Shown here one piece after another: positions 13,716 through 62,014 of a stretch of DNA of 64,000 nucleotides; within the stretch, counting starts at the first letter, position 1; each line of letters begins with the position of its first letter. This stretch comes from Cyanophora paradoxa CCMP329 (lineage: Eukaryota; Plantae; Glaucophyta). The stretch covers positions 248,001-312,000 of the forward strand of contig QPMI01000095.1 of the NCBI GenBank assembly GCA_004431415.1, read 5' to 3'. Position numbers and translations under genes: made by a program. The notes beneath the pieces are model-generated. The model saw nothing but the letters and a program-made list of their open reading frames with translations. It ran no database searches and was not told the origin of the DNA.

Positions 13716-13816
13716 CGGAGGTGGCCGCAGAGCCCAGGACCTTCCCCTTGGGATTTACTTTCAGGATCTACTGCACTCGGCCAATTGCAAGGTTCTAATG
13801 AAATAGGCTGCGGTTG

Positions 13817-32902: not shown

Positions 32903-34144
32903 TTAGTCGGAGGCGGGTTCGACGGAGGCGGCGCCGGCGGCAAGGACGGCGTCGGCCCACGCGGCCGGCAGGCACGCGAGGAGGCGCGGGGCGGCCGCCC
33001 CGGGGCCGACCGCTTTGCTGCGGGCGGGCCCTCGGCGGGGCGCGCGAGGCGGGGGCCGGGGCGCACCGGAGGAAGGGCTCGGGGCTCGCCAGCGCCTCCA
33101 GCACGGCGCCGGCGACGAGGCGCGGGTCGGCGGCCCCGGCCTCTGAGCGGGCGCAGAACGCGAGGGAGCGCCGGAGGGCGTCGTGGTACGGCTCCGGCGA
33201 GCGGGCGATCGCCTGGCGCCAGCTGAAGGAGACGTACTCCGCGTTCACGAGGCCGGACCTCGTCCACCCTGCCGCCCCGCTCGGGGCCGCCTCCGGGCCG
33301 GGGGCCGGGGCGCCGGGGCGCACCGGGCTCGACGACGGAGACGCGCACGCCGAGGGGCGCCACCTCCCGCCGCAGCGCGTCCGCCAGCCCCTCCACAGCG
33401 AACTTCGTCGCCGCGTAGCTGCACCCCGCTCAGCCTGGCAGCCGGGCCGCCCGCCCCGGCGCCGGCGCCACGCGGGGTGGGACACGGCGTGCCATCCTAG
33501 CCGGAGAAGAAGGAGCTCGCGATTAGGCCGGCGCCGGAGGAGATGAACACGACGCGGCCCTTGCTCTCGCGCAGCTGCGGCAGAAGCTCCTGCGTCACGG
33601 CCATTACCCCAAGGACGTTCACTGCAGTCATGATCAGCATGCGCAGAGTTCGAGAGGGGCTCGCGCTGCGAGCTGGACGCGTGGTCCAGCTAGCGCTATG
33701 GCTGAGAGTTGCAAAACAGGTGCACAGCGCGCCGTCAACCATGCGCTTGAGCTCCTCGAACGGCATCGTTTCCAGGGGGCCAACAAGGCTCCAGCCAGCG
33801 TTGTTGACCAAGCCGATGCGGCCGCCCCCGGCGATCGCCGCAACCTTGACGGGAAGCTCCCGCACGTGCTGCAGCCCCCCCGCGCGCGCACTCGCCCTCT
33901 CAGGGCGCACAGGCGGGGCCGGGCGTTCGGCGCGCGCGCCTGCTCGTTCGTGACGTCGAGGATGACCGGGTGCATTCGGGGCGAGCCACGGGCTGTGAGC
34001 CTGTCCGCATCGATCTGCTTGCGTACGCCGGCTTGCTGTGAGCCTGTCCGCATCGATCTGCAGCGCCGTTGCCTCGCCGATCCCCGACGAGCAACCGGTC
34101 ACTACAACCGTGTACGGCGCCTCGTGCGACGGCCCGCCGCCCAT
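32903..34144 (-). pseudogene. Short-chain dehydrogenase/reductase (RDH/17beta-HSD-like) with a frameshifting duplication near the 5' end
   Basis: VVTGCSSGIG, LDVT, GLVNNAG, VNVLG, YAATKFAVEGLADALRREVAPLGVRVSVVEPG. The frame breaks at a duplicated 27-mer (about 33992-34061), which could be an assembly error in a functional gene. Confidence 0.7.
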
Positions 34145-34556
34145 CTGGTGGCTGACGTTTCGCCAGGCGGGGTAAAGGCTTCAATTGGGCTGTACGGGGT
34201 ACGAAGCCGTGTCGGCCTTATCCTCCTCCAGCGGGCGCAACCCCATTGTTCGTCTGCAGGAGATGGTTGCAACGCACAAACCGTTCGCTGACGAGCGGAC
34301 AGCCCACATCTCCTGCCCCGAAGGCCAGGTGCGCGCTGTCAGTTGTGTAACTGCAGCTGCCGCCGCGGGCCGGGCTTCGACATGATTCTGCGCTCCGCAA
34401 TCCGTTTTCGACGCCGTTCGATGCCGAAATGTTTCGGATCTAGACCAGAACATCGCCGAGAGTCGTGTCAGCTGCCGAACGCCTAACGCCGAACGCCTGA
34501 CGATTCGGGCCGGGCTCAGGTGGTGGCGAGCGTGTCAGTTTTGTACGGCACTTGGG

Positions 34557-43680: not shown

Positions 43681-45109
43681 TTGCAAGGGGGGGTACCCCC
43701 TCCCTTGCTCCCCTGGTGAGTTGGTGCGGCGTACTTTCTGTGTTAGCAATTTTTGTAAGATGCGATTCTTTGCATGCGCTCTCGTATAGGTGTGATCGCA
43801 TCGTAGCCGCTGCGAGCGGCGGAAAAAAACGCCAGGGCGGGGCTGCGCAAACATGTCGAGCTCGCGCCTCACCCGCTATTGCTATACGCGCCGGACCACG
43901 TGCTCCTGATTGCTCTCGATGCGCTCTACAAACTCTGTCATACATGCCCGGGCCCGAGAAGCGGCGTGCGGCGCGCTAGACCGCCTCAAGTACCTGTTGT
44001 ACCGGGCGCCGGAAAAAAGCGCTCCTGCGAGTTGGAGGAGATCGTGTTGCAGTACCCGTACGCCGCTTGGGGGGGACCCGTACGCCGCTTGGGGGCAGGG
44101 GGGAATGGACGCCGCTTGCTGGGTACAACAGCGTAGGCCGAATGTTTCGCAACCTTAAGCTTGTTCGCAATGATGCGGGAAGCAGTTCAAGCAGCCGAAG
44201 CGCCCGTGACCACGTCCGGTTCCGCATTCCTGTGCGCTTCCGGCTGCGGCCTCGAGCCGCCTACGCTCTCGGTTTCTGACGGACTCCGGTTCAAGCTCAA
44301 GTTCAGTTACGACGAGCTGTCATGCCGGTGAGCAAGTACGGCCAGCGCGCTAGCTCGGCGCCACGCGCACATATGCATGCGCGTATGTTGACCCGCGGCG
44401 ATCCGTAGCAGATGATGCGGCTTCGCAGTATTCGCGCCGCTCTCCAGGACACGCCGCGCGGCAGGACACGCCCGACGCCACCTGCCGCTCCGCCCGCTTC
44501 CCGCCCGCCGCCCGCGGCCGCCCGCTGCCTCAGCTTCGTCGACTCCAGGTTCGCCCCGCCGCTGCTGCTGTGCATCTCGCCCGGCCGCCGCCGCTGGTCG
44601 CTGCGCCGCTGATGCTGCGCACCTCACCCTGCCGCCACCGCTTGGCCCCGCCACCGCTGTCTGGCGCGAGCTGACGCCTCGGCCCTGCGCAGGCTGTGCG
44701 CAGTGCCTGGCCACCTGTCGCCCCGCCGACTTCCCCGCCGGCTGCCTCAGCTTCGTCGGCTCCAGCTGCAGGTTCGTCCCGCCGCTGCCAGGCTGCTGCT
44801 GCGCATCTCACCCGACCGCCGCCGCTGGGCCCCGCCCCCGCACGGCCGCTGTCCGGGGCGAGCTGACGCCTCGGATCTGCGTATGTGCAGGCTATGTGCA
44901 GGGCCCGGCGCCACCTGTCTGTCCTCCCGCTTCCCCGCCCCCCGCCGCCCTCGCCTGCGCATGCCCGCCAGCCTGGTGCCGCCGCCCGCCTCGCAACCCA
45001 CCCGCCCGCCTCGCCACCCCAACCGTACGCCTCGCCACCCCACCCGGCCGCCTCGCCACCCCGGCGCCTCGCCCGGCGCCCGCCCTGCCTCTAGATCTCT
45101 GCACCCCCC

Positions 45110-45140
<31 letters not shown>

Positions 45141-48100
45141 ACACAAGTACCCTGCAATATGTACAAGTACCCCCCCTTGCACCTCCGCGCGCGGCCCGCA
45201 CTAGCCGCACTTGCAGAGGGCCGGGCGCGGTCTGCTAGTTGCAAGGGGGGGTACCCCCTCCCTTGCTCCCCTGGTGAGTTGGTGCGGCGTACTTTCTGTG
45301 TTAGCAATTTTTGTAAGATGCGATTCTTTGCATGCGCTCTCGTATAGGTGTGATCGCATCGTAGCCGCTGCGAGCGGCGAAAAAAAATGCAAGGGCGGGG
45401 CTGCGCAAACATGTCGAGGTCGCGCCTCACCTGCTATCTCTATATGCGCCAGACCACGTGCTCCTGAATGCTCTCAATGCGCTTTACAAATTCTGTCATA
45501 CATGCCCGGGCTCGAGAAGTGGCGCGTGGCGCGCTAGGCCGCCTCAAGTACCTGTTGTACCGGACGCCGAAAAAAAGCGCTCCTGAGAGTTGGAGGAGAT
45601 CGTGTTGCAGTACCCAGCAGACTTCGTTCGCGCTAGCGCTAGCTGGGCGGAGGCGTGGCGCCGACCGAATGCAACGCCATATGCATGCTCCGACCGTGGC
45701 GAAGTTCTGCTCTGCTCGACACCATATGCATGCGGACACAGCCGGGGCAGATTTGTGGGTTGTGTCTTGTGGGTTGCGGAGCCTCGGAGAGCACCTACAG
45801 CTGCTGACCAACATGTACAAGCACGTTCGTCTGCGCCGGTAGTAGGCGCCCGCTTGGCCGAGGCCGCGCCCGACTGTCGGCGCCCTGCGCCCGCCGACCG
45901 CAGATCCGAGCTTCGAATTCAGCAGCAGCAGCCCTGACGCATGGGTCTGGCCTCTAGCAGCAGCCGCCTCGCGTGGCCTCTAGCAGCCGCTAACGCGCGG
46001 GCACGTCGTGTTCGGCCGCGGAGTGCTCCTGCATCTGTCGTCTTGGTCTGCATCGGCCCGCGCCAAGCCGCCCTCGAGCTCGCGCACCGATCCCGGCGCC
46101 ATGTAGCCGGCGGCAGGCTCGAGAGACAAGCGGCGGCGCGGCTCGACGGGCGGGCGGGAGCGCGGCGGGCGGGGCGCGGCTCGCCGGTCAAGCATGTGCA
46201 TGCGCAGGCTATGCGCAGGGCCCGGCGCCTCCTGCCGCCGCTCCGCCCGCTTCCTCGCCCGCCGCCCGCCCGCTGCCTCAGCTTCGTCGACTCCAGGTTC
46301 GCCCCGCCACTGCTGCTACTTATATACGCACCTGACCCGGCCGACCCCGCTGGGCCCCGCCCCCGCACAGCCGCTGTCGGGGGCGAGCTGACGCCTCAGC
46401 TCTGCGCATGCGCAGGCTATGTGCAGGGCCCGGCGCCTCCTGCCGCCGCTCCGCCCGCTTCCTCGCCCGCCGCCCCGCCGGCTGCTTCAGCTTCGTCGAC
46501 TCCAGGTTCGCCCCGCCACTGCTGCTACGCACCTGACCCGGCCGACCCGCTGGGCCCGGCCTTCGCTCGGTCGCTGTCGGGGAGAGCTGACGCCTCGGCC
46601 CTTCGCAGGCTATGCGGAGGGCACGGCGCCAACTGCCGCTCCTAACTCCCGTGCCCCCTCCCGCCGCCGCCCTCGCCGCCGCCTCCCTCCCTACCCACCC
46701 GCCCACCTCGAGACCCCGCCGGCCTCGCCCGGCCGCCTGTCTCCCCCCCCCCCCCCCCCAAGTACCCTGCGATGAGTCAAGTACCCCCCCTTGCACCTCC
46801 GCGCGCGGCCCGCACTTGCCGCACTTGAACAGGCCCGGGCGCGGTCTGCTAGTATTTGCAAGGGGGGGTACCCCCTCCCTTGCTCCCCTGGTGAGTTGGT
46901 GCGGCGTACTTTCTGTGTTAGCAATTTTTGTAAGATGCGATTCTTTGCATGCGCTCTCGTATAGGTGTGATCGCATCGTAGCCGCTGCGAGCGGCGGAAA
47001 AAAACGCCAGGGCGGGCTGCGCAAACATGTCGAGCTCGCGCCTCACCCGCTATTGCTATACGCGCCGGACCACGTGCTCCTGATTGCTCTCGATGCGCTC
47101 TACAAACTCTGTCATACATGCCCGGGCCCGAGAAGCGGCGTGCGGCGCGCTAGACCGCCTCAAGTACCTGTTGTACCGGGCGCCGGAAAAAAGCGCTCCT
47201 GCGAGTTGGAGGAGATCGTGTTGCAGTACCCGTACGCCGCTTGGGGGGGACCCGTACGCCGCTTGGGGGCAGGGGGGAATGGACGCCGCTTGCTGGGTAC
47301 AACAGCGTAGGCCGAATGTTTCGCAACCTTAAGCTTGTTCGCAATGATGCGGGAAGCAGTTCAAGCAGCCGAAGCGCCCGTGACCACGTCCGGTTCCGCA
47401 TTCCTGTGCGCTTCCGGCTGCGGCCTCGAGCCGCCTACGCTCTCGGTTTCTGACGGACTCCGGTTCAAGCTCAAGTTCAGTTACGACGAGCTGTCATGCC
47501 GGTGAGCAAGTACGGCCAGCGCGCTAGCTCGGCGCCACGCGCACATATGCATGCGCGTATGTTGACCCGCGGCGATCCGTAGCAGATGATGCGGCTTCGC
47601 AGTATTCGCGCCGCTCTCCAGGACACGCCGCGCGGCAGGACACGCCCGACGCCACCTGCCGCTCCGCCCGCTTCCCCGCCCGCCGCCCCGCGGCCGCCCG
47701 CTGCCTCAGCTTCGTCGACTCCAGGTTCGCCCCGCCGCTGCTGCTGTGCATCTCGCCCGGCCGCCGCCGCTGGTCGCTGCGCCGCTGATGCTGCGCACCT
47801 CACCCTGCCGCCACCGCTTGGCCCCGCCACCGCTGTCTGGCGCGAGCTGACGCCTCGGCCCTGCGCAGGCTGTGCGCAGTGCCTGGCCACCTGTCGCCCC
47901 GCCGACTTCCCCGCCGGCTGCCTCAGCTTCGTCGGCTCCAGCTGCAGGTTCGTCCCGCCGCTGCCAGGCTGCTGCTGCGCATCTCACCCGACCGCCGCCG
48001 CTGGGCCCCGCCCCCGCACGGCCGCTGTCCGGGGCGAGCTGACGCCTCGGATCTGCGTATGTGCAGGCTATGTGCAGGGCCCGGCGCCACCTGTCTGTCC

Positions 48101-48285
48101 TCCCGCTTCCCCGCCCCCCGCCGCCCTCGCCTGCGCATGCCCGCCAGCCTGGTGCCGCCGCCCGCCTCGCAACCCCACCCGCCCGCCTCGCCACCCCAAC
48201 CGTACGCCTCGCCACCCCACCCGGCCGCCTCGCCACCCCGGCCGCCTCGCCCGGCCGCCCGCCCTGCCTCTAGATCTCTGCACCC

Positions 48286-48316
<31 letters not shown>

Positions 48317-48414
48317 ACAAGTACCCTGCAATATGTACAAGTACCCCCCCTTGCACCTCCGCGCGCGGCCCGCACTAGCCGCACTTGCAGAGGGCCGGGC
48401 GCGGTCTGCTAGTT
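43681..48414 (+). mobile_element. Head-to-tail trimer (43681-45238, 45239-46855, 46856-48412) of a non-autonomous Helentron/Helitron-like (HINE/DINE-like) element of about 1.6 kb
   Basis: Each unit starts TTGCAAGGGGGGGTACCCCCTCCCTTGC, carries the 15-bp inverted copy GTACCCCCCCTTGCA about 60-70 bp from its end, then a GC stem-loop and CTAG followed by T. Units 1 and 3 are nearly identical; unit 2 is diverged. Internal subrepeats and a C-run/(CA)n tract are present; no transposase. Confidence 0.65.
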
Positions 48415-50314
48415 AAATCTGCTCAGCCGTTTCTGGCCCATGTCGGCGGCGGAAAATTCAAAAAGAATTCCGGTACGCCTGCGGCTGCCGCAGTGCGCGC
48501 ACGCTGCTATATATCGCTGACGCAATGCTTCCGGATCCGAGGCTTCTGCAATCACATATGCAGTGAAAAAGAGATCTAGACCGTCCGGTCCGACGGTCGG
48601 ACGTCGACTCTGGCCCGGCGGCAGAAAATTCAGCCATCGAACTTCAGCCCTGGCAGCGATCCGACAATTGCAATCTCAGCGCTGTCGATTCATGATCATG
48701 TGCATCGTGCATCGTGGCATGTGCCGCAGTGCCTCAGCCTGGCAGTGCTTGCGGAATTCGATTTCAAGTTCTCGGTTTGCGGATTCACACTGGTGCCGTG
48801 TCCTCAATTTCCGAAGTTCGAAGGCTTAACTTAAAGTAAGTTTGGCAAATCATTGAATCGAAGAACAAACTCCGACACATGTACAGACAACCGTTGAACT
48901 TGGCGACCTAACTAGGCCGCCGGGCCTGGCAGGCTGCTGCTGGCCATCCGATGGCCCAGTAGCCCAGCCGTTGAGCAAGAGCCCAATAGCCCTAAAGCAA
49001 CGTTGGACCTCAAATTGGCAAAGATTGGGGAAGGGAAAATCACTTCCCCTGTCCCTGTCCCTCGGGCCCAACCCTACCCCAAATCCCATTTCCCCGACCT
49101 CCGCAAAACCCGGGCCGCGCGGTACATCCTGAAAGCCCATCCCCAGGGGACTCCGAAACCATGTCTCCCGGTCCCGTCCGAGCAAAGGGTGATCCAGGAA
49201 CAGGCACCAACACCCGGGACAAAAATGGGTCCAGCGACGCACAGGGAGCAGATGTACGGGCCAGACCAGTTCGTGGTCGTTGCACGCATCATGCCCGACA
49301 TTCCGTTCTGCGAGAGCTAGGCCGGGCGCGAGCGCGGTCGCGTGGGAGGACGCCGCGCGCGCTAGCCAATCACATTGGAGAGTGCGAACTTACCCTGAGG
49401 AAAGTCTTTTTACGGACCCCCCCCTGCCACTTCCTCCCCCCACGCCGGCCCCGCCTGGCCGCTTTCCGAAGTTCCGAAGTTCTCGAGCTCACTCCCGGCC
49501 CGCACAGCTCGCGATCCGATGATCGGATAGCGCTCTCAGCGCTTGGCAGTCTGCTGCAGCTGTACATGTCGCTAGCCGCGCGCGCCAGCCGCGCACGCCA
49601 CAGCCGCTCCAACCGCGCGCATGCAGATCGCGCGCGCTTTGCCCGCGCATGCGCATGCAGATCGCGCGCGCGCGGAGGCCAGCCTCTAGGCAATTGCAAT
49701 TGCAAGCCGCGGCCGCGCGCCTCCCGAGTCAAGTGCACGTGCAGGCCTAGGCATATAAGGTTCGATTTGTGATTATGCGCATGCATGAGCTCGAGCTATG
49801 ACCATCTCCCGCCCGCCGGCCGCGGGCCGCGCCGGCACCCCGCGGCCGGCCGCGGCCGGCGCCGGCGCCGCGGGCGCCGGCCCGGCGCCGCGGCCGGCGC
49901 GCCCGGGCCGGGCGCCCGGTGCCCGCGACCTACCTATGGCCTAGCCTCGAGCTCGAGCTCGCGTAGGCCTCGAAGACAGCTCGCCTGGCATGGCCTCGAT
50001 TTCAAGTTTTTTTCCTCAAGCTCCGAGGCTCAGCGGCTTTAATTTGTTCCTTTTCCGGCTCGAACTTCGGAAGTCTCTAGAATCTAGATCTGCTCTCTAG
50101 CGCCTGGAGGAGGGCCTCCCTGCTAGCTCGACCCCCCCAGACCCAGACCCGCGGCCGCGCCGGCGCCAAGCTCGACCGCCGCCCCACCCCGGCCCCCGCC
50201 GCCTCGAATTCAGAACCTCCTCCCTCCCGGGCTCCTCCCGCCGCCCTCCGACGCCGGGGCGCGCCCCTGCACGCCGCCGGCCCCCGTCGGCCCCGCGCGG
50301 CTCGCCCCACCGGG

Positions 50315-50772
50315 AGCTCAGCTTGGCGCAGTGTCTCCAAACAATAACCTCGCGCGACCACACGATCCACCGTAACAGCATCGAATCTTTTCGAAAATCA
50401 CCGTAAGGCTCAGTGTCACGATCGAAAAATTAATCGATAAAATACAACTTCATCGAATCACCACACGATCCACCGTAACAGCATCGAATCTTTTCGAAAA
50501 TCACCGTAAGGCTCAGTGTCAAGATCCAAAAAAATACAACTTCATCGAATCACCACACGATCCACCGTAACAGCCCGCTGTACACTTGATTCACACCATT
50601 TTCTATGCAGTGTCTCCCACAATTCCACAAGATTCCGCACGATAAACAGTAAGAAGCCCGTTGTGTCTTTTTTCGCGACTCTTCTACAAAGATTCCGCAC
50701 GATTCACAGTAACTTTTAACCAAAAGTTTAATAAAAATAATTCATGCTCGACTTCGACTTCTTAGATTATAC
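50315..50772 (+). repeat. Left terminal inverted repeat (458 bp) with internal tandem repeats
   Basis: Reverse complement of 60546-61003. The same 67-aa ORF appears 201 bp inside each end. Internal unit ccacacgatccaccgtaacagc... starts at 50358, 50461 and 50553. Confidence 0.95.
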
Positions 50773-50776
50773 AAAC

Positions 50777-51529
50777 CTAAACCATAATAGTCGTGGGTTC
50801 ATTACTAATTCTTACGGATTCTCTCTTTTTTATCGCTCGTTTCTTAACAAACTTGCGAAACGCTTTCATGTCATCATCTGTCAATATTGCGCGATCGGTA
50901 TAGGTCTTTATATCATATCCTTGCAATCCAGTTATGACGGTCTGATAATTGTAACCCCAAAGTCTATGTAGTTCTTTGTAGGTCTTCCTATCCATTCCAG
51001 CGTTATATTCATCATAAGCACATTGAAACTCTTTCTCATTCCCTAAAATATTGAAGAAAACCACGAATTCCACATTACGACGAATGGTAGTAGAAATAGA
51101 ACATAAACGCTGAACATTGAAAATTACGGTAATATTATAATGTCTTCCACTCGTAACAAGTTTTTTTAAGGTCATATTTGTTTCCATATTCAGTGTGGAA
51201 CCGATCATGTCATCTAAAATTATAACCAAACTATTACGCTTTTCATTGTTTTCTATTCGTTTCTTTTGCATACTAATTAGTTTTATCACTACATTATCGT
51301 CCCATTCCTCGTAGATATTTCCAGGATGCGTTATATCTTTGAATTGACCCGTAAACGCAGTGGAACTAAACACTACGATTTGATCGATCTTATCACGCAG
51401 TTCATAAAGTAGATATTTGCAATATGTCGTTTTTCCAGAATTAGACCTACCAGCCAGTAAGAAACGCGACGGTAATTTAGCTGTTTTTGCCGGCTCGAAT
51501 TCGGGAATATCATTTAAATCTATATCCAT
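50777..51529 (-). CDS. A32/FtsK-like genome-packaging ATPase (250 aa from the ATG at 51529)
   Basis: Walker A LAGRSNSGKT, Walker B VIILDD, and the A32-type motif GRHYNITVIFNVQ...IRRN. Confidence 0.92.
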   Translation of the reverse strand: MDIDLNDIPEFEPAKTAKLPSRFLLAGRSNSGKTTYCKYLLYELRDKIDQIVVFSSTAFTGQFKDITHPGNIYEEWDDNVVIKLISMQKKRIENNEKRNSLVIILDDMIGSTLNMETNMTLKKLVTSGRHYNITVIFNVQRLCSISTTIRRNVEFVVFFNILGNEKEFQCAYDEYNAGMDRKTYKELHRLWGYNYQTVITGLQGYDIKTYTDRAILTDDDMKAFRKFVKKRAIKKRESVRISNEPTTIMV

Positions 51530-51628
51530 TACTGTGTGTCCGTTACAGTAATAAGATAAAAAACAAAATAATGCGCTAACCAATACGCAACTTTCGGGGG
51601 TTCCTATTCTTAGGAAAGAAAAGAACTT

Positions 51629-52855
51629 TTAAAAGTTGGAGACTTTCAGAGTCGAAATGTTGTAGCCATTGAGTATCATGACATTGTGACGGAGCGCGTA
51701 AATGTCAACCTGAACCGGCGCAGCATCTGTGCAACCGGAAACGGTCAGATCCATGTACGAACTTGCAGAGTTGAAGAAATCTTGGTAACCCATGACTGAA
51801 TTATGGAGCGAATCCTTCCCAGATTTAGAGAGAACAACACCGTAGATACAAGCATTTTCGAAGCCAAAGTCATTGTTTCCAACAGTGCAACCCTTGAAAT
51901 GTGTAGGAATATGATTAGCAGCGGAGAGGAAACCAGAAATGGGTTTATTAGAGATTTCAAGCGATCGGTTATTATGGAAAATTTGGAATTCATCGATTTT
52001 AACCGCAGAAGTGTAACCGCGGAAATCAGAATGAGTGTATTTCTCCAGTTTGTTGACATCGCGAACAGTCATAATAATTGAATGAACCAGACCGGAAACG
52101 TTAGCGAGTGAAACCTCGACCGCCTCACCAGAATCGGCGGTTTTCAGCGATCGCGTCTTTTTGTGGATGACTTCCGTAATCGGAATACGAATACCTCCCT
52201 GTTCATTCGCCATTTTAATGAGAGTCTCCGCCTCCGCAGAAGCGATATTAACGAATTGACAGATTAGCCCGCAATCAGTCATGGCGACAGATCCACCAGC
52301 GGGGACTTCTACAATCGAAGGTTCGCGGAAGTCTACCTCAATAGCGGGCATTTCCGCCAGGCAACAGAGTGGGAAGTACGCATCATCCCAGAAAGCAGCG
52401 GGAATTTTCACTACGTACTCAGATGAATAATTGGTAGATGCGCGGTTTGTCTCGGTATCAAGTCCAAGCGAAATATACATGCTACTAAGCGTGGCGTAAT
52501 CATTATCGATCAGAGTGTTTACAGTGATCCAATCGCCAGGAATCATATACTTAAAACCACCATGGGTAAAACGAACTTCTTTAATGTAAGAAGCGCCGCC
52601 ATTGGGTAGTGTGCATTCCTGACCACCACCGGTAGTAACCTTAAAGTAAAGCGAAACGCCACTTAGTAGTTGCTTGCGTGGTAGATCAAAATAAGCGGTT
52701 GTTTTGAATCCGAAAGTGTTACCGCGTGGGCGAACCTGTTCAAGGAACGGCTTATACTTGGCGTTGGTTCCGATTTGAAGACCGGGAGATAGATAAATTT
52801 GATCCGATCCGGGAGTAACGAGGAGTTCCTTTAAAGTTGTGCCTGAAATCGACAT
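51629..52855 (-). CDS. Double jelly-roll major capsid protein, NCLDV-MCP-like (408 aa)
   Basis: FDLPRKQLLSGVSLYF, YIKEVRFTHGG...IPGDWI, VVKIPAAFW...FPLCCL.....IEVDFR and C-terminal VDIYALRHNVMIL parallel conserved NCLDV/Polinton MCP blocks. Lies between the ATPase and penton genes. Confidence 0.8.
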   Translation of the reverse strand: MSISGTTLKELLVTPGSDQIYLSPGLQIGTNAKYKPFLEQVRPRGNTFGFKTTAYFDLPRKQLLSGVSLYFKVTTGGGQECTLPNGGASYIKEVRFTHGGFKYMIPGDWITVNTLIDNDYATLSSMYISLGLDTETNRASTNYSSEYVVKIPAAFWDDAYFPLCCLAEMPAIEVDFREPSIVEVPAGGSVAMTDCGLICQFVNIASAEAETLIKMANEQGGIRIPITEVIHKKTRSLKTADSGEAVEVSLANVSGLVHSIIMTVRDVNKLEKYTHSDFRGYTSAVKIDEFQIFHNNRSLEISNKPISGFLSAANHIPTHFKGCTVGNNDFGFENACIYGVVLSKSGKDSLHNSVMGYQDFFNSASSYMDLTVSGCTDAAPVQVDIYALRHNVMILNGYNISTLKVSNF

Positions 52856-52908
52856 GATCTTATGTTTAAAATACGAAAAGAAAATTTTAATTTACTTTAT
52901 TAAACAGA

Positions 52909-53811
52909 ATGACGCGTTATTATCTAAATATTGATTCCCGAGACCGGGACGAAGGAACCCCCACAAACTATTCTTATAAACTTCCCCATGCAATCCAAAA
53001 TGTTAAAGCGTGTCGTGTTACTAATTTCGAAATGTTCAATAACATTTACAATCTAAGCGAGGATGGAGTACTCACAACATCAACATATGACGCAGGAGGT
53101 GTTATTAAAAATAAAAATAATCTCATTGCGAAAGGATCATATACCATAGATAGTTTAGTAAATCTTCTAAATGCTACGATATCAACACAGGTGTATAGTA
53201 CAGCGGGAACAACTTATACCCGTCACTTCAATGTCTCATATAACCCCACATCAATGCGACTTAGAATTATGGGAGAGTCTGAATTCAATCTTAAGTTTGG
53301 TAGTCTTATTTTAGCCAATTTCCTCGGATTTCCAGAAACGGTACCGCAAGAGTCAGCGGAAGGTTACCCATCGGTTCTGTTTGATTTACCGGTAACCGTT
53401 GGTGCTTACACATATACCAATTACCTTGACAGCGTCATAGCGGTCGATCTCCTGTTTAATTCGTACATCCTTTTACATGTCGATCCACTCAAAGGTAATT
53501 ACGTAAGCAAGAACACCAGCGATGACAAAGCGCTCGCTAAAATTGAGATTGACCAAGAGGTAGGACATCTTCTAAAATATGATTCTACCAATAACTCTAT
53601 GATCATTCATGAACAAAACGGATTAGTGGAAGTTGAGACGCTCAAAGTGCGTTTAACGTATTGGAATGGTGTAGAAACTGATATTACCACGGATTGGTCA
53701 ATGACATTAGAACTTTTCACCGAAGATGAACAAGAACTAACAAAAGCATCATTAAAGAGTATCATAAGAGATTTAGAGGCTGTTTATCTACCGTTTGGTC
53801 GAAACTATTAA
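52909..53811 (+). CDS. Minor capsid (penton) protein, single jelly-roll (300 aa)
   Basis: N-terminal LNIDSRDRD....YSYKLP...NV, internal G.YT...L...LN, and C-terminal LKVRLTYWNG..D...DWSMTLEL, typical of PLV/NCLDV penton-like proteins. Confidence 0.8.
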   Translation: MTRYYLNIDSRDRDEGTPTNYSYKLPHAIQNVKACRVTNFEMFNNIYNLSEDGVLTTSTYDAGGVIKNKNNLIAKGSYTIDSLVNLLNATISTQVYSTAGTTYTRHFNVSYNPTSMRLRIMGESEFNLKFGSLILANFLGFPETVPQESAEGYPSVLFDLPVTVGAYTYTNYLDSVIAVDLLFNSYILLHVDPLKGNYVSKNTSDDKALAKIEIDQEVGHLLKYDSTNNSMIIHEQNGLVEVETLKVRLTYWNGVETDITTDWSMTLELFTEDEQELTKASLKSIIRDLEAVYLPFGRNY

Positions 53812-53872
53812 GCCAATTATCCGCTAAATGTGATATGATATATCGCTAATTATTTTTGTTTCAGTATTACAA

Positions 53873-54622
53873 ATGGCTCGTAAGACTCAACCGAAGAATT
53901 TCTTAGAAAAACCCGTTGAACAGGCAGAACCAGAACGGAAGCAATACAAGAAATCGAAAGGAACCGCAGCATACGAAAGCGGTGATATTGATAAGACTAT
54001 CGATAATACAATTAATTCCCATGCTGTGGCGCCGGTAGATGATACTAACGATTCTAACGCTCTTATTGATCAAGTCCCGCTAAACAAGATGCCGGGCGCT
54101 AAGCGTGGTATCAAAAAGGGGCAATTCAAAAGCGCAACGCTTGATAAAGTAGCGAAAAAATCGACTCTTCTTAAACTTCTCGATGGTGGTGAGCGTCTAT
54201 ATTCAACTTATTCAGAAAAAGACCGCCGGAACCGCTACTTTATTAGATCAACAAAAGGTAATCTAAGAACAGTACCATACAGACATGCTAAAAGTCTCGT
54301 TGATGGTATCGCAGAAGAGGTAGAGAAAGAGAAGAAGATAACGGAGGAACCGATAACCAAAAAGAAGGTAGCAAAGAAACCCGATGTTACGTTCGATGTC
54401 CTACCGGATCCAATCAAAGAAGAAAAGACCGCAACAAATGAATTAATCGCTAAAACGATTGATTACCAAGAATCCAATAAAACGGATTTGCCGGTGCTTA
54501 ACAAGAATATACTAAGGGTTGCTACATCACAATCTGACCCGATTAACTCGATTCCAAATGGTGCGCCGATGCTTTCAGGATTCGCTAAATTGCGCATCCG
54601 TCCGGGATACATGAGGGCATAG
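53873..54622 (+). CDS. Lys-rich hypothetical viral protein (249 aa), possible core/DNA-binding protein
   Basis: Intact ATG-initiated ORF in the structural block, K/E-rich, no recognised family. Confidence 0.7.
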   Translation: MARKTQPKNFLEKPVEQAEPERKQYKKSKGTAAYESGDIDKTIDNTINSHAVAPVDDTNDSNALIDQVPLNKMPGAKRGIKKGQFKSATLDKVAKKSTLLKLLDGGERLYSTYSEKDRRNRYFIRSTKGNLRTVPYRHAKSLVDGIAEEVEKEKKITEEPITKKKVAKKPDVTFDVLPDPIKEEKTATNELIAKTIDYQESNKTDLPVLNKNILRVATSQSDPINSIPNGAPMLSGFAKLRIRPGYMRA

Positions 54623-54635
54623 CCCGACATTTGCG

Positions 54636-54675
54636 AAGCCCAGCGTTAAGCCCAGCGTTAAGCCCAGCGTTAAGC
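54636..54675 (+). repeat. 12-bp tandem repeat (AAGCCCAGCGTT)x3.3 in the central non-coding region of the element
   Basis: Read directly; the core AGCGTTAA recurs at about 54711. Confidence 0.9.
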
Positions 54676-54932
54676 ATCATTCTAACGTTAAAATTTTCTT
54701 TACAAAGAATAGCGTTAAACATCCATCTCCGAATTTTAGCGCTCACGTTTTGCTTAATTTTTTTTAAGCGGCGTTGTAGAGAAGTTGTGATATCCATGTA
54801 TCACGCTTTTTCATCACCTGTTCTACGGGGTTCATTCGTAGAATCGAGGAGGCGAAGACCTTCAGCTTATTTTTCCGGGCATCTTCTTATTAACGATGCG
54901 CAATGTTCCAAAACATCATACATACGAGACAA

Positions 54933-54961
54933 AAAATGATTTAAAGATTTCTCGCTATATA
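54933..54961 (+). promoter_or_regulatory. Putative early promoter AAAATGATTTAAAGA...TATATA upstream of ORF 54987
   Basis: 14/15 identical to the motif at 55405-55419; both start 52-54 nt before the ATG. Confidence 0.55.
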
Positions 54962-54986
54962 TTAGAAGAGGATCAACAGAGACACA

Positions 54987-55226
54987 ATGGTAAGCGAAGC
55001 GCATAAGAAAGCAACAATGCGTTATCTGAAAACTGAGAATGGGAAGGCATACCTTACAAAATACAAGAATGCTCTAAAAGAACTCTATAAGACCGATGAA
55101 TGTTATCGATCTATGAAGATTGTGAAGAGTTCACAAAACGCTTATATTGCTAATGCGGTATGTTTCGTAAAATATCTATTTGGTGTTCCTCGTACCAATC
55201 GAGGACGTCCACCAATATATTGTTAA
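54987..55226 (+). CDS. Small basic viral protein (79 aa) with a C-terminal AT-hook-like RGRP
   Basis: Intact ORF preceded by the shared promoter motif; contains HKKATMRYLKTENGK and NRGRPP. Confidence 0.6.
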   Translation: MVSEAHKKATMRYLKTENGKAYLTKYKNALKELYKTDECYRSMKIVKSSQNAYIANAVCFVKYLFGVPRTNRGRPPIYC

Positions 55227-55404
55227 TTAGTTTTCTCGGCGCGCTTGCTCTGAGAAAGACCCAAACCGCGGTAATCGCGCTGAAACGTTAGGCGTTCACT
55301 TCGAGTTATTTTTAGAATCATCAAATGATGGTCGACCCCTTTGTTATTTTTAAAATTGCTTGACCGGTAAATTTTCCCGATCGGTCAAAAAAATCTCATG
55401 GAAT

Positions 55405-55439
55405 AAAATGACTTAAAGAATTCTTTTCTTGTATATATA
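55405..55439 (+). promoter_or_regulatory. Putative early promoter AAAATGACTTAAAGA...TATATATA upstream of the polymerase-helicase gene
   Basis: Second copy of the motif at a matching distance from the ATG (55457). Confidence 0.55.
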
Positions 55440-55456
55440 ATAAGAAAACAAGCAAA

Positions 55457-58400
55457 ATGCCCCGAGCATCGAATCTGAGACTGCGAAAGAAGAAGCAAGA
55501 GACGGTGGCGAAGGCGATGGAAGCCTTTGTGACCGATAAAATCACTCGTGAGAAGTTTGAGGAGTACCTTGATCTGATCACTTACCAGCGTCCGAGAGAG
55601 GAGAAGTTAGATAATACCATTACTGAACTGAATCGTGTTCTTTACCAACGGTTTGAGCGTAAGCAACAGAAGAAGGCGGCGAAAGCCGAGAAGTTGGCGC
55701 GCAAGCGTCGGGATCCGTTTGAGAAAATGATGGCGAACCTTCGTGAGTATATCCAGAACTCACCAGGAAACATGGTAACTCTGCATGTCCGTATTTACAA
55801 GGACATCTCACCCGGTGAGATTCCAAACCTTCCCGCTAACTCTAATGTAGTCGAAGAAGATGGTACGTTCTACTACGAGATGAAGAAGACAAGTAGTAAC
55901 CAACCGCTCTCCATTCAGTGTTCCAAAGCGAATTTTTTAAATGCACTTGACAAAATCAATACCACATTTAATACCTTCCCGGCTCTGATGGGCGTTGAGA
56001 ATATCCAAGAGTTCATGTTTGCAATTCTAAAAGAGAATGCGGGAAATCGTGATTTTCGGTACTTTGTAGTAGTTCAAAATGATATTTACGGTAACATCCT
56101 GACATTTGAGCGAATCATCACCACCGACAACCAAACTTATACACCGAGACAACTACAACCACTTCGTGATACTCAATATGCTCCGATGATTATTTCGAAG
56201 TATATTCGCAATGAGACTAACCCACAAGCGAAAACGTTGGAGGAACTCTTTATCCGGGGCGATAAATTTAAAGTGGGTCGTTGTGTTCCCGATGTCCTTG
56301 TTATGCACTTTGCCCGAGCATTTCAGAAAGCGCAAGGGAAAGGTAAGTATAAATCCGTGAATTGGTCGCATGAAGGTATATTTAAAATGATTCGTGGGCG
56401 TGAACCTGTTGAGGGTGATGATTGGGGCTTTACTTTCGAGGAAATCGTAGAAAAAGTTCTTACTCCTTACCGTCTTGGATTTGTCACAATCGACAAAGAC
56501 GACAAGACCGAAATACCGGAACTCACTTATAAACCAAACACCAGAAATACCCACCTAACCCCATCGGTTGCATACGTGAAAATCGAAAGTGGACACTTAT
56601 ACCTTCTTAATGAAAATCTCAAATCTCTCACTCACTCATTCAATGGTTCGAAGTCGAATTCCGACACAAACCTTTCGGTGGGTTCGCGATTCAAGATTAT
56701 CAAGCAAAGAAAACATCGCGAATTTGCGGCAACTCCCGAGGATATTGTGAAAATCATTAATTCGGAGGAGATGAAGAACCAGAGCAAAATTTCGATTTGT
56801 TACAGTGGATACCTTGACGATCTCCTTAAAACATTCATCGTCGATGTTAATTACCAAGTTCACGCCGGACTATCGCCGATGCGCAAGGTTACACACATTC
56901 ATTTCACCTATGGCGAAAAGAGTATTACGATCACACCACCCGGTTCAGATACAGACGTAGAGACAGCCTACCAGATTAACTTTAAGGATGCTGAATATCG
57001 CGATAAGTTCGAGCGTCTGAATCTTTTAATGTATCTGAGTCTTGTGAACACTAATAATAAGAGTACGTACAATGATCAAACCGCTACAGCTTTTCGCATT
57101 GGTTCACAGACTGCCCTACGTGGATTTTTCGATTTGGATAAGGAGACCATTGAAGAGATTGGGTGGAACAGGAATATTTACGAACACGATGTGTGCAAAG
57201 CCTACCCTGCAATCATTGCGAAACAGATAGAAAATATTCCAGTTGTGGGTAAGTTCGATTATTTCCAAAAGACAGTCGTAACTTCCGCGGATCAGATCGA
57301 AAAGTATAACTTCTACTACGTAAAATTGAAGTCCAAGTTTTTCAAAACCATGAAAAATTCGGATGGAACTACGTACGAACTGAACATTTACAATCGCTAT
57401 AAGCGAATGCTGATTGATTCACGTTACAATGTCATCCCCGGTTTGGTTCTCAAAAAACATTATGAGGATGTCAAAGATGATATTACCATTAAGGCGGTTC
57501 TCAGACCATATAAATTGGTTCCAAACTACTCAGGCGATGTGATCAAGCAAATTATGGAGTCTGACCTTCACCCAACAGATAAAAAGCAAATGCTTGTATC
57601 AAACATTGGGCAAATCGGAAAACAGAAGAACCATAAAGTAAAAACCACGATCTTTAACAAGCGCGATGATGCCGTTGAATTCCAAAAGCAACATGGCGGA
57701 GAGGTGAAACTATACGTTTTTGGTAAAGATCCTACAACGTATGACCCAACTTGTTACGTCGTTGCTGAGGAAAATATCACAGAGCCACACTTCTATTATG
57801 TGAATCAAGAAGCCGAAAAGTACCTTACTGATGGTTTCTTACCATTCCACAATCTCATGTATTCCATCATGCGAATGAATCTTTACGAGAAAACCGTGGA
57901 GCTAAGTAAGAAAGGATCCCATCCAATCTCTGTTAACACTGACTGTGTGTACACAATCTCGTGTGATCCCATCCAAACTCATACTTTCGATCGCAACAAC
58001 TACGACAACATCGGAAAGTTCAGCGTGAACCACTGCCCCAATTTCATTAAGAAGTATACCGGGAAGAACAAGGAGTTTGAACTTAAGAAGTTGCATTATG
58101 GAAAGATTGAGAGAGATGAGGATTTCGTGAAGTTGGAAAAGTTAAACTACATAGTTCACTCAGTGGTTGATGAATACAACACTCCCGCGATTTGCGATAC
58201 TCTCGAAACTCTTAAACGTTGTATCATTCTCGGAATCGTTCCAGGAGTTGGTAAGACATTCATAGCCACTCAGCTTGCGAAACGCTTCAAAAATCCACTT
58301 TTCATTGTTCCGACTAACAAGAGAATTCGCGACATGAAACTACAACATGGTCTTCCCAATGTTAAGACCATTTATGATGCCCTACATCTGAAAGTTGACG

Positions 58401-59518
58401 ATTCAAACATGGACGAAGTTGTAGGTGGAAATGCTGCGGGATTGGCTGAATATGATGGTATCTTTATTGACGAAGTGTGTCAGTTCACAGTTTCGGAGTT
58501 GGCGGCGCTTGCTCACATTATGTTAGTGCTATTCCCTGATAAGGTTTACATCGCCACGGGCGATCCTTACCAAAATCCACCCATCCAAGATATGACAGTA
58601 GACCAGAAACAATACTATTCGTACATTCTTCGTCTTCTATTCCAGAACGAATTAGTATTGAAGGTCAATAAGCGTCACAAGTCCCAGAAGGATAAAGACA
58701 CTGTCGAGGAAATCAAACAAGATCTATTCGAGAATGGTATGAGCATCCCGGATGTCATCAAAAAGTACAAGTTTGAGACAGTTAATACTTTGGGGAAGGA
58801 TGACAGGGCGATAGTTTACACCAATCGCAAGGCGGCGGAAGTGAACCTACAACTCCACAAAATGAACCATGGCGAAGACGTCCCGATCTACGCGAAGGGT
58901 GTGGAAATTGTCGCAAAACAAAGGATCGTGAAGAGTGGCGTGACAATTCACAATGGGTTCACTTACACCATTAAGGCGTTCGATGATAAAGAGTTCGTCA
59001 TCGAAGACGTCGCGACAAATGAGGTAATCACATTAGACCCGCCGGCAATGCGATACTTTGCGCTTCCATACGCTTACACTTGTCACGTGGTTCAAGGTGA
59101 TACCATCGAATGCGAAAACGGTAACATCGTCATCTACGAATCGGGCGCCCCATACGTTTCGGCGGAATGGTTCTATACCGCAATCACCCGAACGACCGAA
59201 CTAAGCCGTGTGAAGATTTACCATGATGGTTACGAGTGGGCGGATTTCGTCGTTAACATGAAGAAGTTTAACGAGAGACTCGAACAGTACAAGGAGCAAG
59301 ACCGAAAGGCAAATCGACCATTTGATGAAAAGGATTATGTCAATTGGGAGTGGATTAAGAAACGTTACGGCAAACAATATGGTCATTGCCTGCGCTGTTA
59401 CGGTGGTATGGATTTCGATTTAAGTGTAATTTCGGTGGATCGGATCAATAACGCGTTACCCCATACTACTAAAAATTGTTTCCTGTCCCATATTAAGTGT
59501 AACTGCGCTGCTCAATAA
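55457..59518 (+). CDS. Multidomain replication protein (1353 aa): putative terminal protein / vOTU-like domain, divergent protein-primed PolB, SF1 (RecD/Pif1-like) helicase, C-terminal HNH/Zn domain
   Basis: PolB-like motifs A (EHDVCKAYP), B (KQMLVSNIGQIGK) and C (SVNTDCVY). SF1 motifs GIVPGVGKT, IFIDEVCQ, GDPYQNPPI, YAYTCHVVQGDT and FYTAITR. C-terminal CLRC...SVDRINNALPHTTKNC...H..CN. Confidence 0.85.
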   Translation: MPRASNLRLRKKKQETVAKAMEAFVTDKITREKFEEYLDLITYQRPREEKLDNTITELNRVLYQRFERKQQKKAAKAEKLARKRRDPFEKMMANLREYIQNSPGNMVTLHVRIYKDISPGEIPNLPANSNVVEEDGTFYYEMKKTSSNQPLSIQCSKANFLNALDKINTTFNTFPALMGVENIQEFMFAILKENAGNRDFRYFVVVQNDIYGNILTFERIITTDNQTYTPRQLQPLRDTQYAPMIISKYIRNETNPQAKTLEELFIRGDKFKVGRCVPDVLVMHFARAFQKAQGKGKYKSVNWSHEGIFKMIRGREPVEGDDWGFTFEEIVEKVLTPYRLGFVTIDKDDKTEIPELTYKPNTRNTHLTPSVAYVKIESGHLYLLNENLKSLTHSFNGSKSNSDTNLSVGSRFKIIKQRKHREFAATPEDIVKIINSEEMKNQSKISICYSGYLDDLLKTFIVDVNYQVHAGLSPMRKVTHIHFTYGEKSITITPPGSDTDVETAYQINFKDAEYRDKFERLNLLMYLSLVNTNNKSTYNDQTATAFRIGSQTALRGFFDLDKETIEEIGWNRNIYEHDVCKAYPAIIAKQIENIPVVGKFDYFQKTVVTSADQIEKYNFYYVKLKSKFFKTMKNSDGTTYELNIYNRYKRMLIDSRYNVIPGLVLKKHYEDVKDDITIKAVLRPYKLVPNYSGDVIKQIMESDLHPTDKKQMLVSNIGQIGKQKNHKVKTTIFNKRDDAVEFQKQHGGEVKLYVFGKDPTTYDPTCYVVAEENITEPHFYYVNQEAEKYLTDGFLPFHNLMYSIMRMNLYEKTVELSKKGSHPISVNTDCVYTISCDPIQTHTFDRNNYDNIGKFSVNHCPNFIKKYTGKNKEFELKKLHYGKIERDEDFVKLEKLNYIVHSVVDEYNTPAICDTLETLKRCIILGIVPGVGKTFIATQLAKRFKNPLFIVPTNKRIRDMKLQHGLPNVKTIYDALHLKVDDSNMDEVVGGNAAGLAEYDGIFIDEVCQFTVSELAALAHIMLVLFPDKVYIATGDPYQNPPIQDMTVDQKQYYSYILRLLFQNELVLKVNKRHKSQKDKDTVEEIKQDLFENGMSIPDVIKKYKFETVNTLGKDDRAIVYTNRKAAEVNLQLHKMNHGEDVPIYAKGVEIVAKQRIVKSGVTIHNGFTYTIKAFDDKEFVIEDVATNEVITLDPPAMRYFALPYAYTCHVVQGDTIECENGNIVIYESGAPYVSAEWFYTAITRTTELSRVKIYHDGYEWADFVVNMKKFNERLEQYKEQDRKANRPFDEKDYVNWEWIKKRYGKQYGHCLRCYGGMDFDLSVISVDRINNALPHTTKNCFLSHIKCNCAAQ

Positions 59519-60576
59519 TGGATAACGTGTTATCTTACAAGAAGTATCGCCAGAAATTGATAAATGATAAAGTTAATTTTGATGAAGAAGAATTGAAAAA
59601 ACGATTTTTAAACTCAGAAGTTCACCAGATATTTAAGAAACCACAAAAGCCTAAAACATTTCTAAGAATTGTCGCAAAGCCACGATCATTTCAAGTAGAC
59701 ATTATGTATTTTAAAGGATATCAAACAGCAAACAATGGAATTTTTAAGATGATAAGTTTTATTGACATATTAAGTCGAAAGGCGTACGTGTATCCTTTCA
59801 AAACAAACCAAGATATCCCAAGTATTCTTAATCGGTTCAAACAGGACGCCGGAAAGGTCGCCGCTCTATCGGGAGATAATGAGTTTTCCAGTGCAATTTA
59901 TCGCAATTGGTGCGGAGAACATGGAGTCAGACTATATACCGATGTTGCTAAGGATGAACATATTACAGTTGGTGATAAACTCGGAATTATCGATAGATTC
60001 ACAAGGACTTTCAAGCAATATTTAAGGAAGGCAATGACAGCAAAGGGGACAACGAAATGGATCGATCTATTAAGTGAAGTTCTCGATGTTTATAATAATT
60101 CGCCTCATAGTGCTTTGAAAAATGACTCACCAAATGCTGTGTATTCTGATGAAGATAAACAGCTATACATTTACCTTCGGGATACTGTCCACAATAACAA
60201 CGTAAAGGGAAATGAGAAAGTTGATGTAAAACCAGGTGATACTGTTCGAGTGTTTGAAGGTAAAAAAAGTGCGTTTGAAAAGGAAGGTGCGCGATTCAGT
60301 CAGAAGGTCTTTAAAGTTGGAAGACCTGACGGTAACCGGTTTAAAGTATTGGAGGACATGGACGGAGAAGTAAAGGAAGTAAAGCGACGTTTCAAGAAGC
60401 AAGAATTACAGAAAGTGAAAGAAACCGAAATTATTAAAATTCCATCACAGAAACGAATAGAGAGAGTCAAGAAAACGAATAAAGTTAATGAAAAGTTAAA
60501 GAAAGAAGGCATTAAACCCAATCGTAGTAACATCGTGAGACGAAAGTATAATCTAAGAAGTCGAAGTCGAGCATGA
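59518..60576 (+). CDS. Retroviral-like (rve) integrase (352 aa)
   Basis: FQVDIM, IDILSRKAYVYP, LSGDNEF, GIIDRFTRTFK, WIDLL..V...YNNSPHSAL...P and KPGDTVRV. The last 10 codons lie inside the right TIR. Confidence 0.93.
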   Translation: MDNVLSYKKYRQKLINDKVNFDEEELKKRFLNSEVHQIFKKPQKPKTFLRIVAKPRSFQVDIMYFKGYQTANNGIFKMISFIDILSRKAYVYPFKTNQDIPSILNRFKQDAGKVAALSGDNEFSSAIYRNWCGEHGVRLYTDVAKDEHITVGDKLGIIDRFTRTFKQYLRKAMTAKGTTKWIDLLSEVLDVYNNSPHSALKNDSPNAVYSDEDKQLYIYLRDTVHNNNVKGNEKVDVKPGDTVRVFEGKKSAFEKEGARFSQKVFKVGRPDGNRFKVLEDMDGEVKEVKRRFKKQELQKVKETEIIKIPSQKRIERVKKTNKVNEKLKKEGIKPNRSNIVRRKYNLRSRSRA

Positions 60577-61003
60577 ATTATTTTTATTAAACTTTTGGTT
60601 AAAAGTTACTGTGAATCGTGCGGAATCTTTGTAGAAGAGTCGCGAAAAAAGACACAACGGGCTTCTTACTGTTTATCGTGCGGAATCTTGTGGAATTGTG
60701 GGAGACACTGCATAGAAAATGGTGTGAATCAAGTGTACAGCGGGCTGTTACGGTGGATCGTGTGGTGATTCGATGAAGTTGTATTTTTTTGGATCTTGAC
60801 ACTGAGCCTTACGGTGATTTTCGAAAAGATTCGATGCTGTTACGGTGGATCGTGTGGTGATTCGATGAAGTTGTATTTTATCGATTAATTTTTCGATCGT
60901 GACACTGAGCCTTACGGTGATTTTCGAAAAGATTCGATGCTGTTACGGTGGATCGTGTGGTCGCGCGAGGTTATTGTTTGGAGACACTGCGCCAAGCTGA
61001 GCT
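60546..61003 (-). repeat. Right terminal inverted repeat (458 bp)
   Basis: Reverse complement of 50315-50772; ends ...GCTGAGCT, followed by the TSD CCGGG. Confidence 0.95.
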
Positions 61004-62014
61004 CCGGGAGCCCTGGGGCGCCTGATCTCCCTGTCGGCCCCGACGAGCCCCATATGCATGCATGTGGCCCCACGCCGGCCCCGCTGCATCGATATCCGCT
61101 GGCGCCGCTCTCCAGTGAGGCGCCGCGGGCGCCGGCCCCCGCCCCCACCCGCGCCGGCCCCTCGCCGGCGTCCCCCTCCGCCGACCCAATGCGGGGCGTC
61201 GATATCGCAGCGGCGATCGGGCGGCGCTCCTCGGCCTCGACGCCCATCCTCGCGAGCCCCGCCTCCGGCCCCCTCCTCGGCGTGAGTCTTCTCGAGCCGG
61301 CGCCCCCGCTAGCGCTCCGGATCAAGATCTAGAGCTGCAGGATCCTGGCCTCAACCCCTCCCCCCTCGCCCCCCGCCCCGAATCGCCCCGAATTCGAAAG
61401 TGAATTTCCCTTCCCCGGACCCCGCAGCGGCGTGCACGAGCACGACCCCTTCCGAGCGCGCGCCGCAGCGGGCCCTTTATCTAGAGTGAATTCGAAGAAA
61501 ATCAGATGATCCGGGATCGGACTCGGCGAGCCTCGGAGCCTCGGAGATCCTTACGCCATCGTGTGCTGATCATGATCATGAATTCGAAAATTCTGTCGTC
61601 TTCGTCCATCCAGGCCCCGATCCAAAATTCTGTGCATACGCACTGGAGGCCCGATCCAGGCCCTATTTCTAGGGCCCCCATGCCACGCTAAAATCCACCA
61701 AGGGCGTGCAAGCAACTTGCAAATTAAAGTATTTTGCTTGCCAAATTTCAGCTGCTGAGCTGTGCGTCACCACTGGTCACCGGGTGCAGTGCAACTGCGC
61801 ACATGCGCATGCTGCAGCTGTCACAATCCGACTCGCTGATCATGATCATGAGCCCCCTTCCGCGGGACAACCGTTGAACAGCGCTTAGTATCGCGGGGCT
61901 GGCAGCGCGCCGCGCCCGCGTTTCAGAGGCCGCGCGTCGCCAGGCACGGGACCTGGAGGGACGCGCGGCGGGGCGCTGGGGCGCTGAGAGGCGGCGACCG
62001 CAGCGGGGCCATAG

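Follow-up and report, generated by a model that had tools for sequence, protein, structure and literature searches.

A probable intact endogenous Polinton-like virus of 10.7 kb with a Tlr1-type gene set in the glaucophyte alga Cyanophora paradoxa

A 64,000-nt stretch of the Cyanophora paradoxa CCMP329 genome (contig QPMI01000095.1, positions 248,001 to 312,000 of the forward strand; hereafter the window, to which all positions refer) contains a sharply bounded, GC-poor island, raising the question of whether this is a complete virus, a shortened derivative of a larger one, a dead insertion or an artifact of assembly. We conclude that it is probably an intact endogenous Polinton-like virus (PLV) of 10.7 kb with the gene set of the Tlr1 elements, recently inserted by its own rve-family integrase, and that it is predicted to replicate by protein priming and to form double jelly-roll capsids. 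Its boundaries, terminal inverted repeats (TIRs), target site duplication (TSD), open genes, modeled capsid fold, packaging ATPase, helicase and conserved catalytic residues are directly established.

The element occupies positions 50315-61003 (10,689 bp) and carries seven open reading frames (ORFs). Its TIR arms (left, 50315..50772 on the + strand; right, 60546..61003 on the - strand) are identical over 458 bp by exact computed match, as a preliminary description had judged by eye; the arms start with AG, giving an element that ends AG...CT, and the left one has two internal subrepeats of ~100 bp. A repeat search returned an arm of 463 nt, because it extended into flanking bases. The pentanucleotide CCGGG abuts both ends (50310..50314 and 61004..61008), a 5-bp match whose probability by chance is 0.002-0.003 given the flank composition, and the TSD is intact as described; the span first given, 50310-61008, located the element correctly but took in both CCGGG copies. 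The guanine-plus-cytosine (GC) fraction of the element is 0.406 versus 0.729 in positions 1-44000 and 0.795 in the right flank (host range 0.68-0.80), and the CpG observed/expected ratio is 1.32; CpG erosion is therefore absent, in keeping with a base composition that has not ameliorated to the ~0.73 of the host. Together the seven ORFs account for 84% of the whole element and for 92% between the TIRs. Only 4 nt separate the ATPase stop from the left TIR, and at the other end the integrase gene, whose start overlaps the stop of the replicase, extends 31 nt into the right TIR. All seven are open, and the major capsid protein (MCP), replicase and integrase align with homologs over most of their length, which fits the intron-free genes originally proposed. 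We found no gene fragments or signs of decay in the element. The TIR shows no terminal hairpin over its first 186 nt (z -0.64), a scan of 43-64 kb of the window against Rfam was negative, and the 64 kb contain no further copy. The exact TIRs, the TSD and the open ORFs together support the description of a complete and recent endogenous PLV, and its small size is indeed unusual against the published PLV range of 14-40 kb (PMC10120064; PMC12220804).

The sharp GC step, the repetitive left flank, and the lack of a junction-bridging contig among the contigs listed for 49300-60540 could suggest that a free virus or contaminant was joined into a host contig during assembly. We consider such a chimera scarcely credible: a 5-bp duplication beside exact TIRs is not a product of mis-joining, 14 of the 24 sequencing runs listed, all under one organism label, contain a fraction of 0.79-0.83 of the words of the element, and related MCPs sit in long host contigs (PMC10120064).

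The replication module is dominated by a Tlr1-like replicase of 1,353 aa (55457..59518, + strand), which combines a predicted vOTU domain (C276, H380), a PolB palm (motif A D578; motif B K710/N716; motif C NTDC with D829), an SF1B helicase (Walker A 930-934; DE 1005-1006) and a C-terminal HNH-type nuclease (about 1311-1350). Four homologs emerged among 7,076 candidates (24-28% identity over 85-99% of the searched region), and a seven-sequence alignment keeps the OTU Cys/His dyad, palm motifs A, B and C, the helicase motifs and the HNH; the replicase profile also matches the RecD/Dda helicases. The proposed PolB-helicase fusion is thus borne out by the conservation of its palm and SF1 motifs. 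The first Asp of motif C is absent, a loss that activity is expected to survive (PMC11161782), and PLV members of the Tlr1-like helicase family likewise end in an HNH domain (PMC5499653). The preliminary description had the element devoid of a protease. This stands for a Ulp1-type capsid maturation protease, there being no protease family among the eight ORFs taken into a Pfam scan of the element, but it must be limited to that class, because the replicase itself bears a predicted OTU protease dyad. Alignment of the replicase identified seven loci in IMG/VR, five of which match at length; in four of these five (contigs of 15-20 kb, two near-identical) an rve gene lies directly 3' of the replicase, and the fifth bears a virophage capsid. 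Contig L005 combines a Sputnik-type virophage capsid with this same Tlr1-like replicase (140-4105 and 12375-14102).

The integrase (352 aa, 59518..60576, + strand) matches Pfam rve at E 0.0016, below the cut-off, and foamy virus integrase at E 0.0045; its relatives pass the rve cut-off, and together with the triad D61-D120-D159 these matches uphold its assignment to the rve family. The third acidic residue is Asp and not Glu, the residue present in four of four relatives in one comparison. In another, the closest relative (L008, 35% identity) is the one of five that has both Asp and the same loop insertion. A two-sequence alignment further recovered 21 metagenome integrase loci, and Asp occupies the third site in all 11 whose motif could be read (it went unread in 10), representing about five distinct types of which one is L008. 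The recurrence of Asp and the loop insertion in L008 and these 11 loci indicates a lineage trait rather than damage. The Asp-type rve subfamily with the loop insertion comprises L008 (5991-7097), L017-L022, L025, L027, L030 and L032; in its longer loci the integrase lies 3' of a 1,200-1,280-aa ORF, and the ORFs of this kind in L018, L023 and L025 fall into no Pfam family and lack a match to the Tlr1-like profile. A literature search that included a whole-word search for the Asp-Asp-Asp triad found no paper on an rve enzyme of this kind, which, if shown active, would constitute a new catalytic variant of the rve integrases.

The same residues bear on the proposal that the copy, though recently integrated, is dead, its integrase inactivated by the replacement of Glu by Asp and its palm inactive. 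D159 does stand where canonical rve enzymes have Glu, motif C lacks its first Asp, and the Tlr1-like palm was judged inactive in 2016 (PMC5499653); yet the Asp is shared with L008, along with its loop insertion, and with every readable metagenome locus, and the 2024 update, in which an active vOTU precedes the polymerase domain, predicts an active palm (PMC11161782). We accordingly regard a dead copy as improbable.

The structural module begins with an A32-like genome packaging ATPase (250 aa, 50777..51529, - strand), which matches Pfam Pox_A32 above the cut-off (E 4.8e-15), and continues with the MCP (51629..52855, - strand). As a single sequence, the latter has no homolog in Pfam, the PDB or the word index, and its single-sequence fold is unusable (predicted local distance difference test, pLDDT, 30). 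Only five relatives were found among 1.84 billion representatives, at local identities of 24-28%, but an AlphaFold2 model built with them reaches a pLDDT of 66.7 and a predicted template modeling score of 0.72. Foldseek aligns this model to the PBCV-1 capsid at E 6.5e-19, and structural comparison gives Z 27.9 (root-mean-square deviation 3.2, 329 residues aligned) for PBCV-1 versus Z 16.9 for Sputnik and Z 16.1 for mavirus. On this model the MCP is a double jelly-roll capsid protein with a fold like that of the nucleocytoplasmic large DNA viruses (NCLDVs), whose capsids are its best solved-structure matches, as had been suggested. The atlas, in which recognition of the MCP is below the usual level, places it at 0.98 with clusters holding Capsid_N/Capsid_NCLDV in 10-18% of their members. 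The profile of the MCP and its relatives (A1) has no match among PDB sequences or Pfam, and none of its six members matches a virophage MCP family in Pfam, whereas the control from L005 matches Sputnik_MCP_1st at 1.9e-48.

A fold of this type does not by itself fix the placement of the capsid. We tentatively entertain the idea that the module belongs to a Nucleocytoviricota-related PLV continuum (the Zoravirus, Zephyrvirus or Tlr1/OmPLV branch) and not to Aquintoviricetes, with this element as its smallest and first glaucophyte member, though we would not yet bet on it. Besides the Z-scores and atlas clusters, this draws on the HHpred matches of catalogued relatives to ascovirus and iridovirus MCPs (PMC10120064), on the branching of the Tlr1 and OmPLV MCPs between PLVs and NCLDVs (PMC12721341), and on the frequent RVE of Zoravirus and VC218 and the PolB-SF1 fusions of Zephyrvirus members (bioRxiv 2026.06.19.733378). 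Set against it, there are no PLV capsids among the matched solved structures listed, and the comparison may therefore miss the right competitor; the MCP profile finds further matches in contig L004 (its MCP, E 1e-9) and in the Trimcap-like contig L015 (one of three MCPs, E 3e-8; profile-profile 94.8%), the L015 protein itself matching Capsid_N weakly (E 3e-4); and no Mriya48, HUH or VLTF gene was recognized. In L015, a contig with TIRs, the three capsid-like genes adjoin one another (3236-7500). The contigs of two remote MCP relatives, P0008 and P0009, measure 15.5 kb and 11.7 kb, and the latter could be another small member.

Head to head with the MCP is a 300-aa ORF (52909..53811, + strand), a putative minor capsid protein (mCP) that is probably the penton, judging by its position and by an atlas placement at 0.98 with unnamed viral clusters. 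Its top PDB match is PBCV-1 P1 at an E of only 1.1, and profile comparison with the putative pentons of related contigs is not significant. The full morphogenesis module of the preliminary description consequently holds for the MCP and the ATPase and is weak for the mCP. Two basic ORFs follow on the + strand, of 249 aa (53873..54622, pI 9.6), with no homolog in the related loci retrieved, and of 79 aa (54987..55226, pI 9.8); we found no homologs of either and assume both to be genes, and they are the two ORFs of the element left unassigned. The former is possibly a DNA-binding core protein, and the latter has at its C-terminal end the motif RGRP, which resembles an AT-hook. A 12-bp tandem repeat (3.3 copies, 54636-54675) lies 3' of the 249-aa ORF. 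A 70-aa ORF at 54585-54797 (- strand) was rejected as a gene; it overlaps the 249-aa ORF and the tandem repeat and belongs to no family. Contig scans with the MCP, the ATPase or the integrase alone recovered no relative, nor did scans of phage records with the ATPase and the replicase.

The public sequencing runs contain a diverse, multi-copy family of the element. Over 49300-60540, run X1 yields 721 contigs, with 186 at >=99% identity, 178 at 95-99, 195 at 90-95 and 162 at <90, and run X8 yields 454; the X1 contigs derive partly from the repetitive flank, and contig depth is no copy number. Near-exact contigs of 0.9-1.4 kb in two runs cover both modules. Sister copies skip or replace the stretch around the 12-bp tandem repeat and also differ in TIR length; one of them, present in all four runs examined, has a TIR variant lacking about 175 nt (50442-50618, mirrored in the right TIR). 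Contigs of the DNA runs have joints at 54611-54674 and end loosely at 54809-54964, so that sister copies vary in the interval separating the structural from the replication module, and the loose-end cluster is likely the module boundary. Two runs guessed to be RNA, X15 and X18, have the flank repeat at a depth of 0.3-5.9 versus 1,259-4,318 in X1; there, diverged relatives are represented by short contigs with depths in the thousands, and a single contig of 2.1-2.3 kb, ~98.5% identical, runs from the helicase end through the integrase into the TIR. These hint that the family, mostly in the form of other copies, is transcribed, with neither level nor strand readable from such runs. With its motifs intact and a sister family in these runs, the element may be potentially active, as first suggested. 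The repeat DNA adjoining the element on the left is high-copy in the DNA runs. Directly left of the insertion, at 43681-48414, is a host tandem duplication, in which 43681-45240 and 46856-48414 share 99.3% identity over 1,565 nt at a spacing of 3,175, with a more diverged copy of ~1.6 kb between them. GC-rich host genes at 1000-5800, 33497-34180 and 39897-42635 encode a glucan water dikinase Ig-like domain, a short-chain dehydrogenase and a TPR protein.

The variation between modules also bears on whether the element is a deletion derivative of a 15-20 kb member, either transposon-like or packaged by proteins of sister copies and so not self-sufficient. Relatives with the replicase-rve cassette reside on 15-20 kb contigs with more ORFs, and no fiber, lipase or other entry protein is recognizable among the ORFs of the element. 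Nevertheless, a coding density of 92% between exact TIRs, with seven open ORFs and no gene fragments, and near-exact contigs covering both modules speak against such a deletion, and we hold this origin to be unlikely, if a good deal less so than a dead copy.

Returning to an intact virus, we propose the following life cycle, modeled on the described virus family. The rve integrase would join the AG...CT ends to host DNA and leave the 5-bp duplication, the scar of which is observed. Following release, the OTU domain may cut off the N-terminal priming domain, and the linear genome would be copied by protein priming, with the palm polymerizing and the fused SF1B helicase unwinding, after which the A32 ATPase would fill capsids without the need for a maturation protease. 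Since genes for an RNA polymerase or a transcription factor are missing from the element, transcription must be borrowed, presumably from the host or a helper. Several points weigh against this picture: the polymerase and OTU calls are motif-based predictions from the seven-sequence alignment, the palm carries its 2016 verdict, the integrase has its atypical third acid, the mCP call is significant in no alignment test, an entry protein is missing from the recognizable set, and bridging contigs are missing from those listed. As to its current state, most cultured PLVs need a giant virus, and C. paradoxa has giant-virus remnants and methylated viral genes (bioRxiv 2026.06.19.733378; PMC12344493); these together favor, by a slight preference, a silent provirus that would be switched on by a co-infecting giant virus, with autonomous nuclear replication as the alternative.

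The lineage has already been counted in surveys, in which we found no description of it. The MCP is identical at 241 of 299 residues (~80%, by hand count) to a C. paradoxa MCP listed in row 24 of Table S2 of PMC10120064, well above the threshold for cluster membership in that study (>=25% identity over 30% of the length to a member), and it accordingly falls within the group formed by the Cyanophora MCP clusters 21 and 29, in one or the other. Its homolog P0006 is a C. paradoxa gene that is itself row 106 of that table. Tables S2 and S4 list six MCPs for C. paradoxa and assign 272 + 94 hits to clusters 21 and 29, each new and unnamed, and the species is absent from the main text (PMC10120064). 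Table S6 of a second survey gives 156 glaucophyte endogenous viral elements, with 0 protease, 85 rve, 34 SF1 helicase and 139 Pox_A32 assignments, and polinton MCP models catch only 2 of the 156 (PMC12220804). Despite hundreds of hits in one genome, this capsid lineage escapes the standard profiles: Pfam recognizes 0 of 6 members, and the polinton MCP models those 2 of 156.

What would make the locus most consequential is a self-sufficient seven-gene virus at the lower size limit of PLVs, with a glaucophyte-specific capsid lineage nearer to giant-virus capsids than to Aquintoviricetes, a previously undescribed Asp-Asp-Asp rve integrase and inducibility in a culturable alga; we think this full combination doubtful. 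If self-sufficient and inducible, it would offer a bench model of Tlr1-type viruses and, for glaucophytes, a first virus. Whether Tlr1-type elements form virions and whether the polymerase-helicase fusion polymerizes are open questions (PMC5499653; PMC11161782), which an intact copy in a culturable alga would make testable. So small an element could show how few genes PLVs need, and its seven genes would set a lower bound on the PLV gene set.

In its gene content, the element is a PLV in the broad sense (double jelly-roll MCP, A32-like ATPase, no maturation protease) with the gene set of the Tlr1 type (a replicase of vOTU, palm, SF1 helicase and homing nuclease; RVE integrase with a TSD), and the features tested separate it from Polintons, virophages and transpovirons. 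It lacks the Ulp1 protease and any DNA_pol_B_2 match of Polintoviricetes, and its polymerase is fused to an SF1 helicase; it has neither a virophage-type MCP match nor a protease, as in Virophaviricetes; and its MCP and ATPase set it apart from the transpovirons, which have no capsid genes. It also falls outside the 20-45 kb of Mriyaviricetes and Zoravirus, with no Mriya48, HUH or VLTF gene in a Pfam scan that did not use those groups' own profiles. What looks undescribed is its size below 14-40 kb, the genome anatomy of the glaucophyte lineage and the Asp-Asp-Asp integrase triad shared with environmental relatives: the literature searched gave no account of its genome size, termini or gene order, and no paper on DUF5901, though preprint supplements could place the Cyanophora clusters.

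Among known systems, Polintons/Mavericks and mavirus-type virophages share with it the rve integrase, TIRs, a 5-6-bp TSD and the MCP, ATPase and, probably, mCP, and Polinton/Maverick TIRs end AG...CT; the present element has no Ulp1 protease and no stand-alone pPolB, and its capsid lies outside the virophage family. OmPLV has a different fusion, with the helicase on the N-terminal side of a complete pPolB, and carries a tyrosine recombinase (PMC12721341). Zoravirus, VC218 and Zephyrvirus have NCLDV-like capsid modules, with RVE in the first two and PolB-SF1 fusions in Zephyrvirus, but are of 15-30 kb, with Mriya48/HUH in Zoravirus and no endogenous Zephyrvirus known; we found no mention of Cyanophora in that preprint (bioRxiv 2026.06.19.733378), and replication and capsid modules are reported to swap freely (bioRxiv 2026.10.13.758929). 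PLV-Bnat, SAF5 and TVS1 share the replicase palm, SF1 helicase and C-terminal HNH and the absence of a protease, but are larger, and most have a tyrosine recombinase or no integrase (PMC5499653). The closest likeness in gene set is to the Tlr1 elements of Tetrahymena thermophila, which have the MCP, mCP (probable here), A32 ATPase, RVE, TIRs and several integrated copies, together with the vOTU-bearing PolB-palm/SF1 helicase fusion and no maturation protease (PMC5499653; PMC11161782). The gene combination, put forward in the preliminary description as possibly defining a new group, is therefore not new, since the published Tlr1 set is the same. This likeness is one of gene set; Tlr1 has a C-terminal GIY-YIG nuclease in place of the HNH-type nuclease found here, and the C. 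paradoxa element resides in an alga and packs its seven genes into 10.7 kb.

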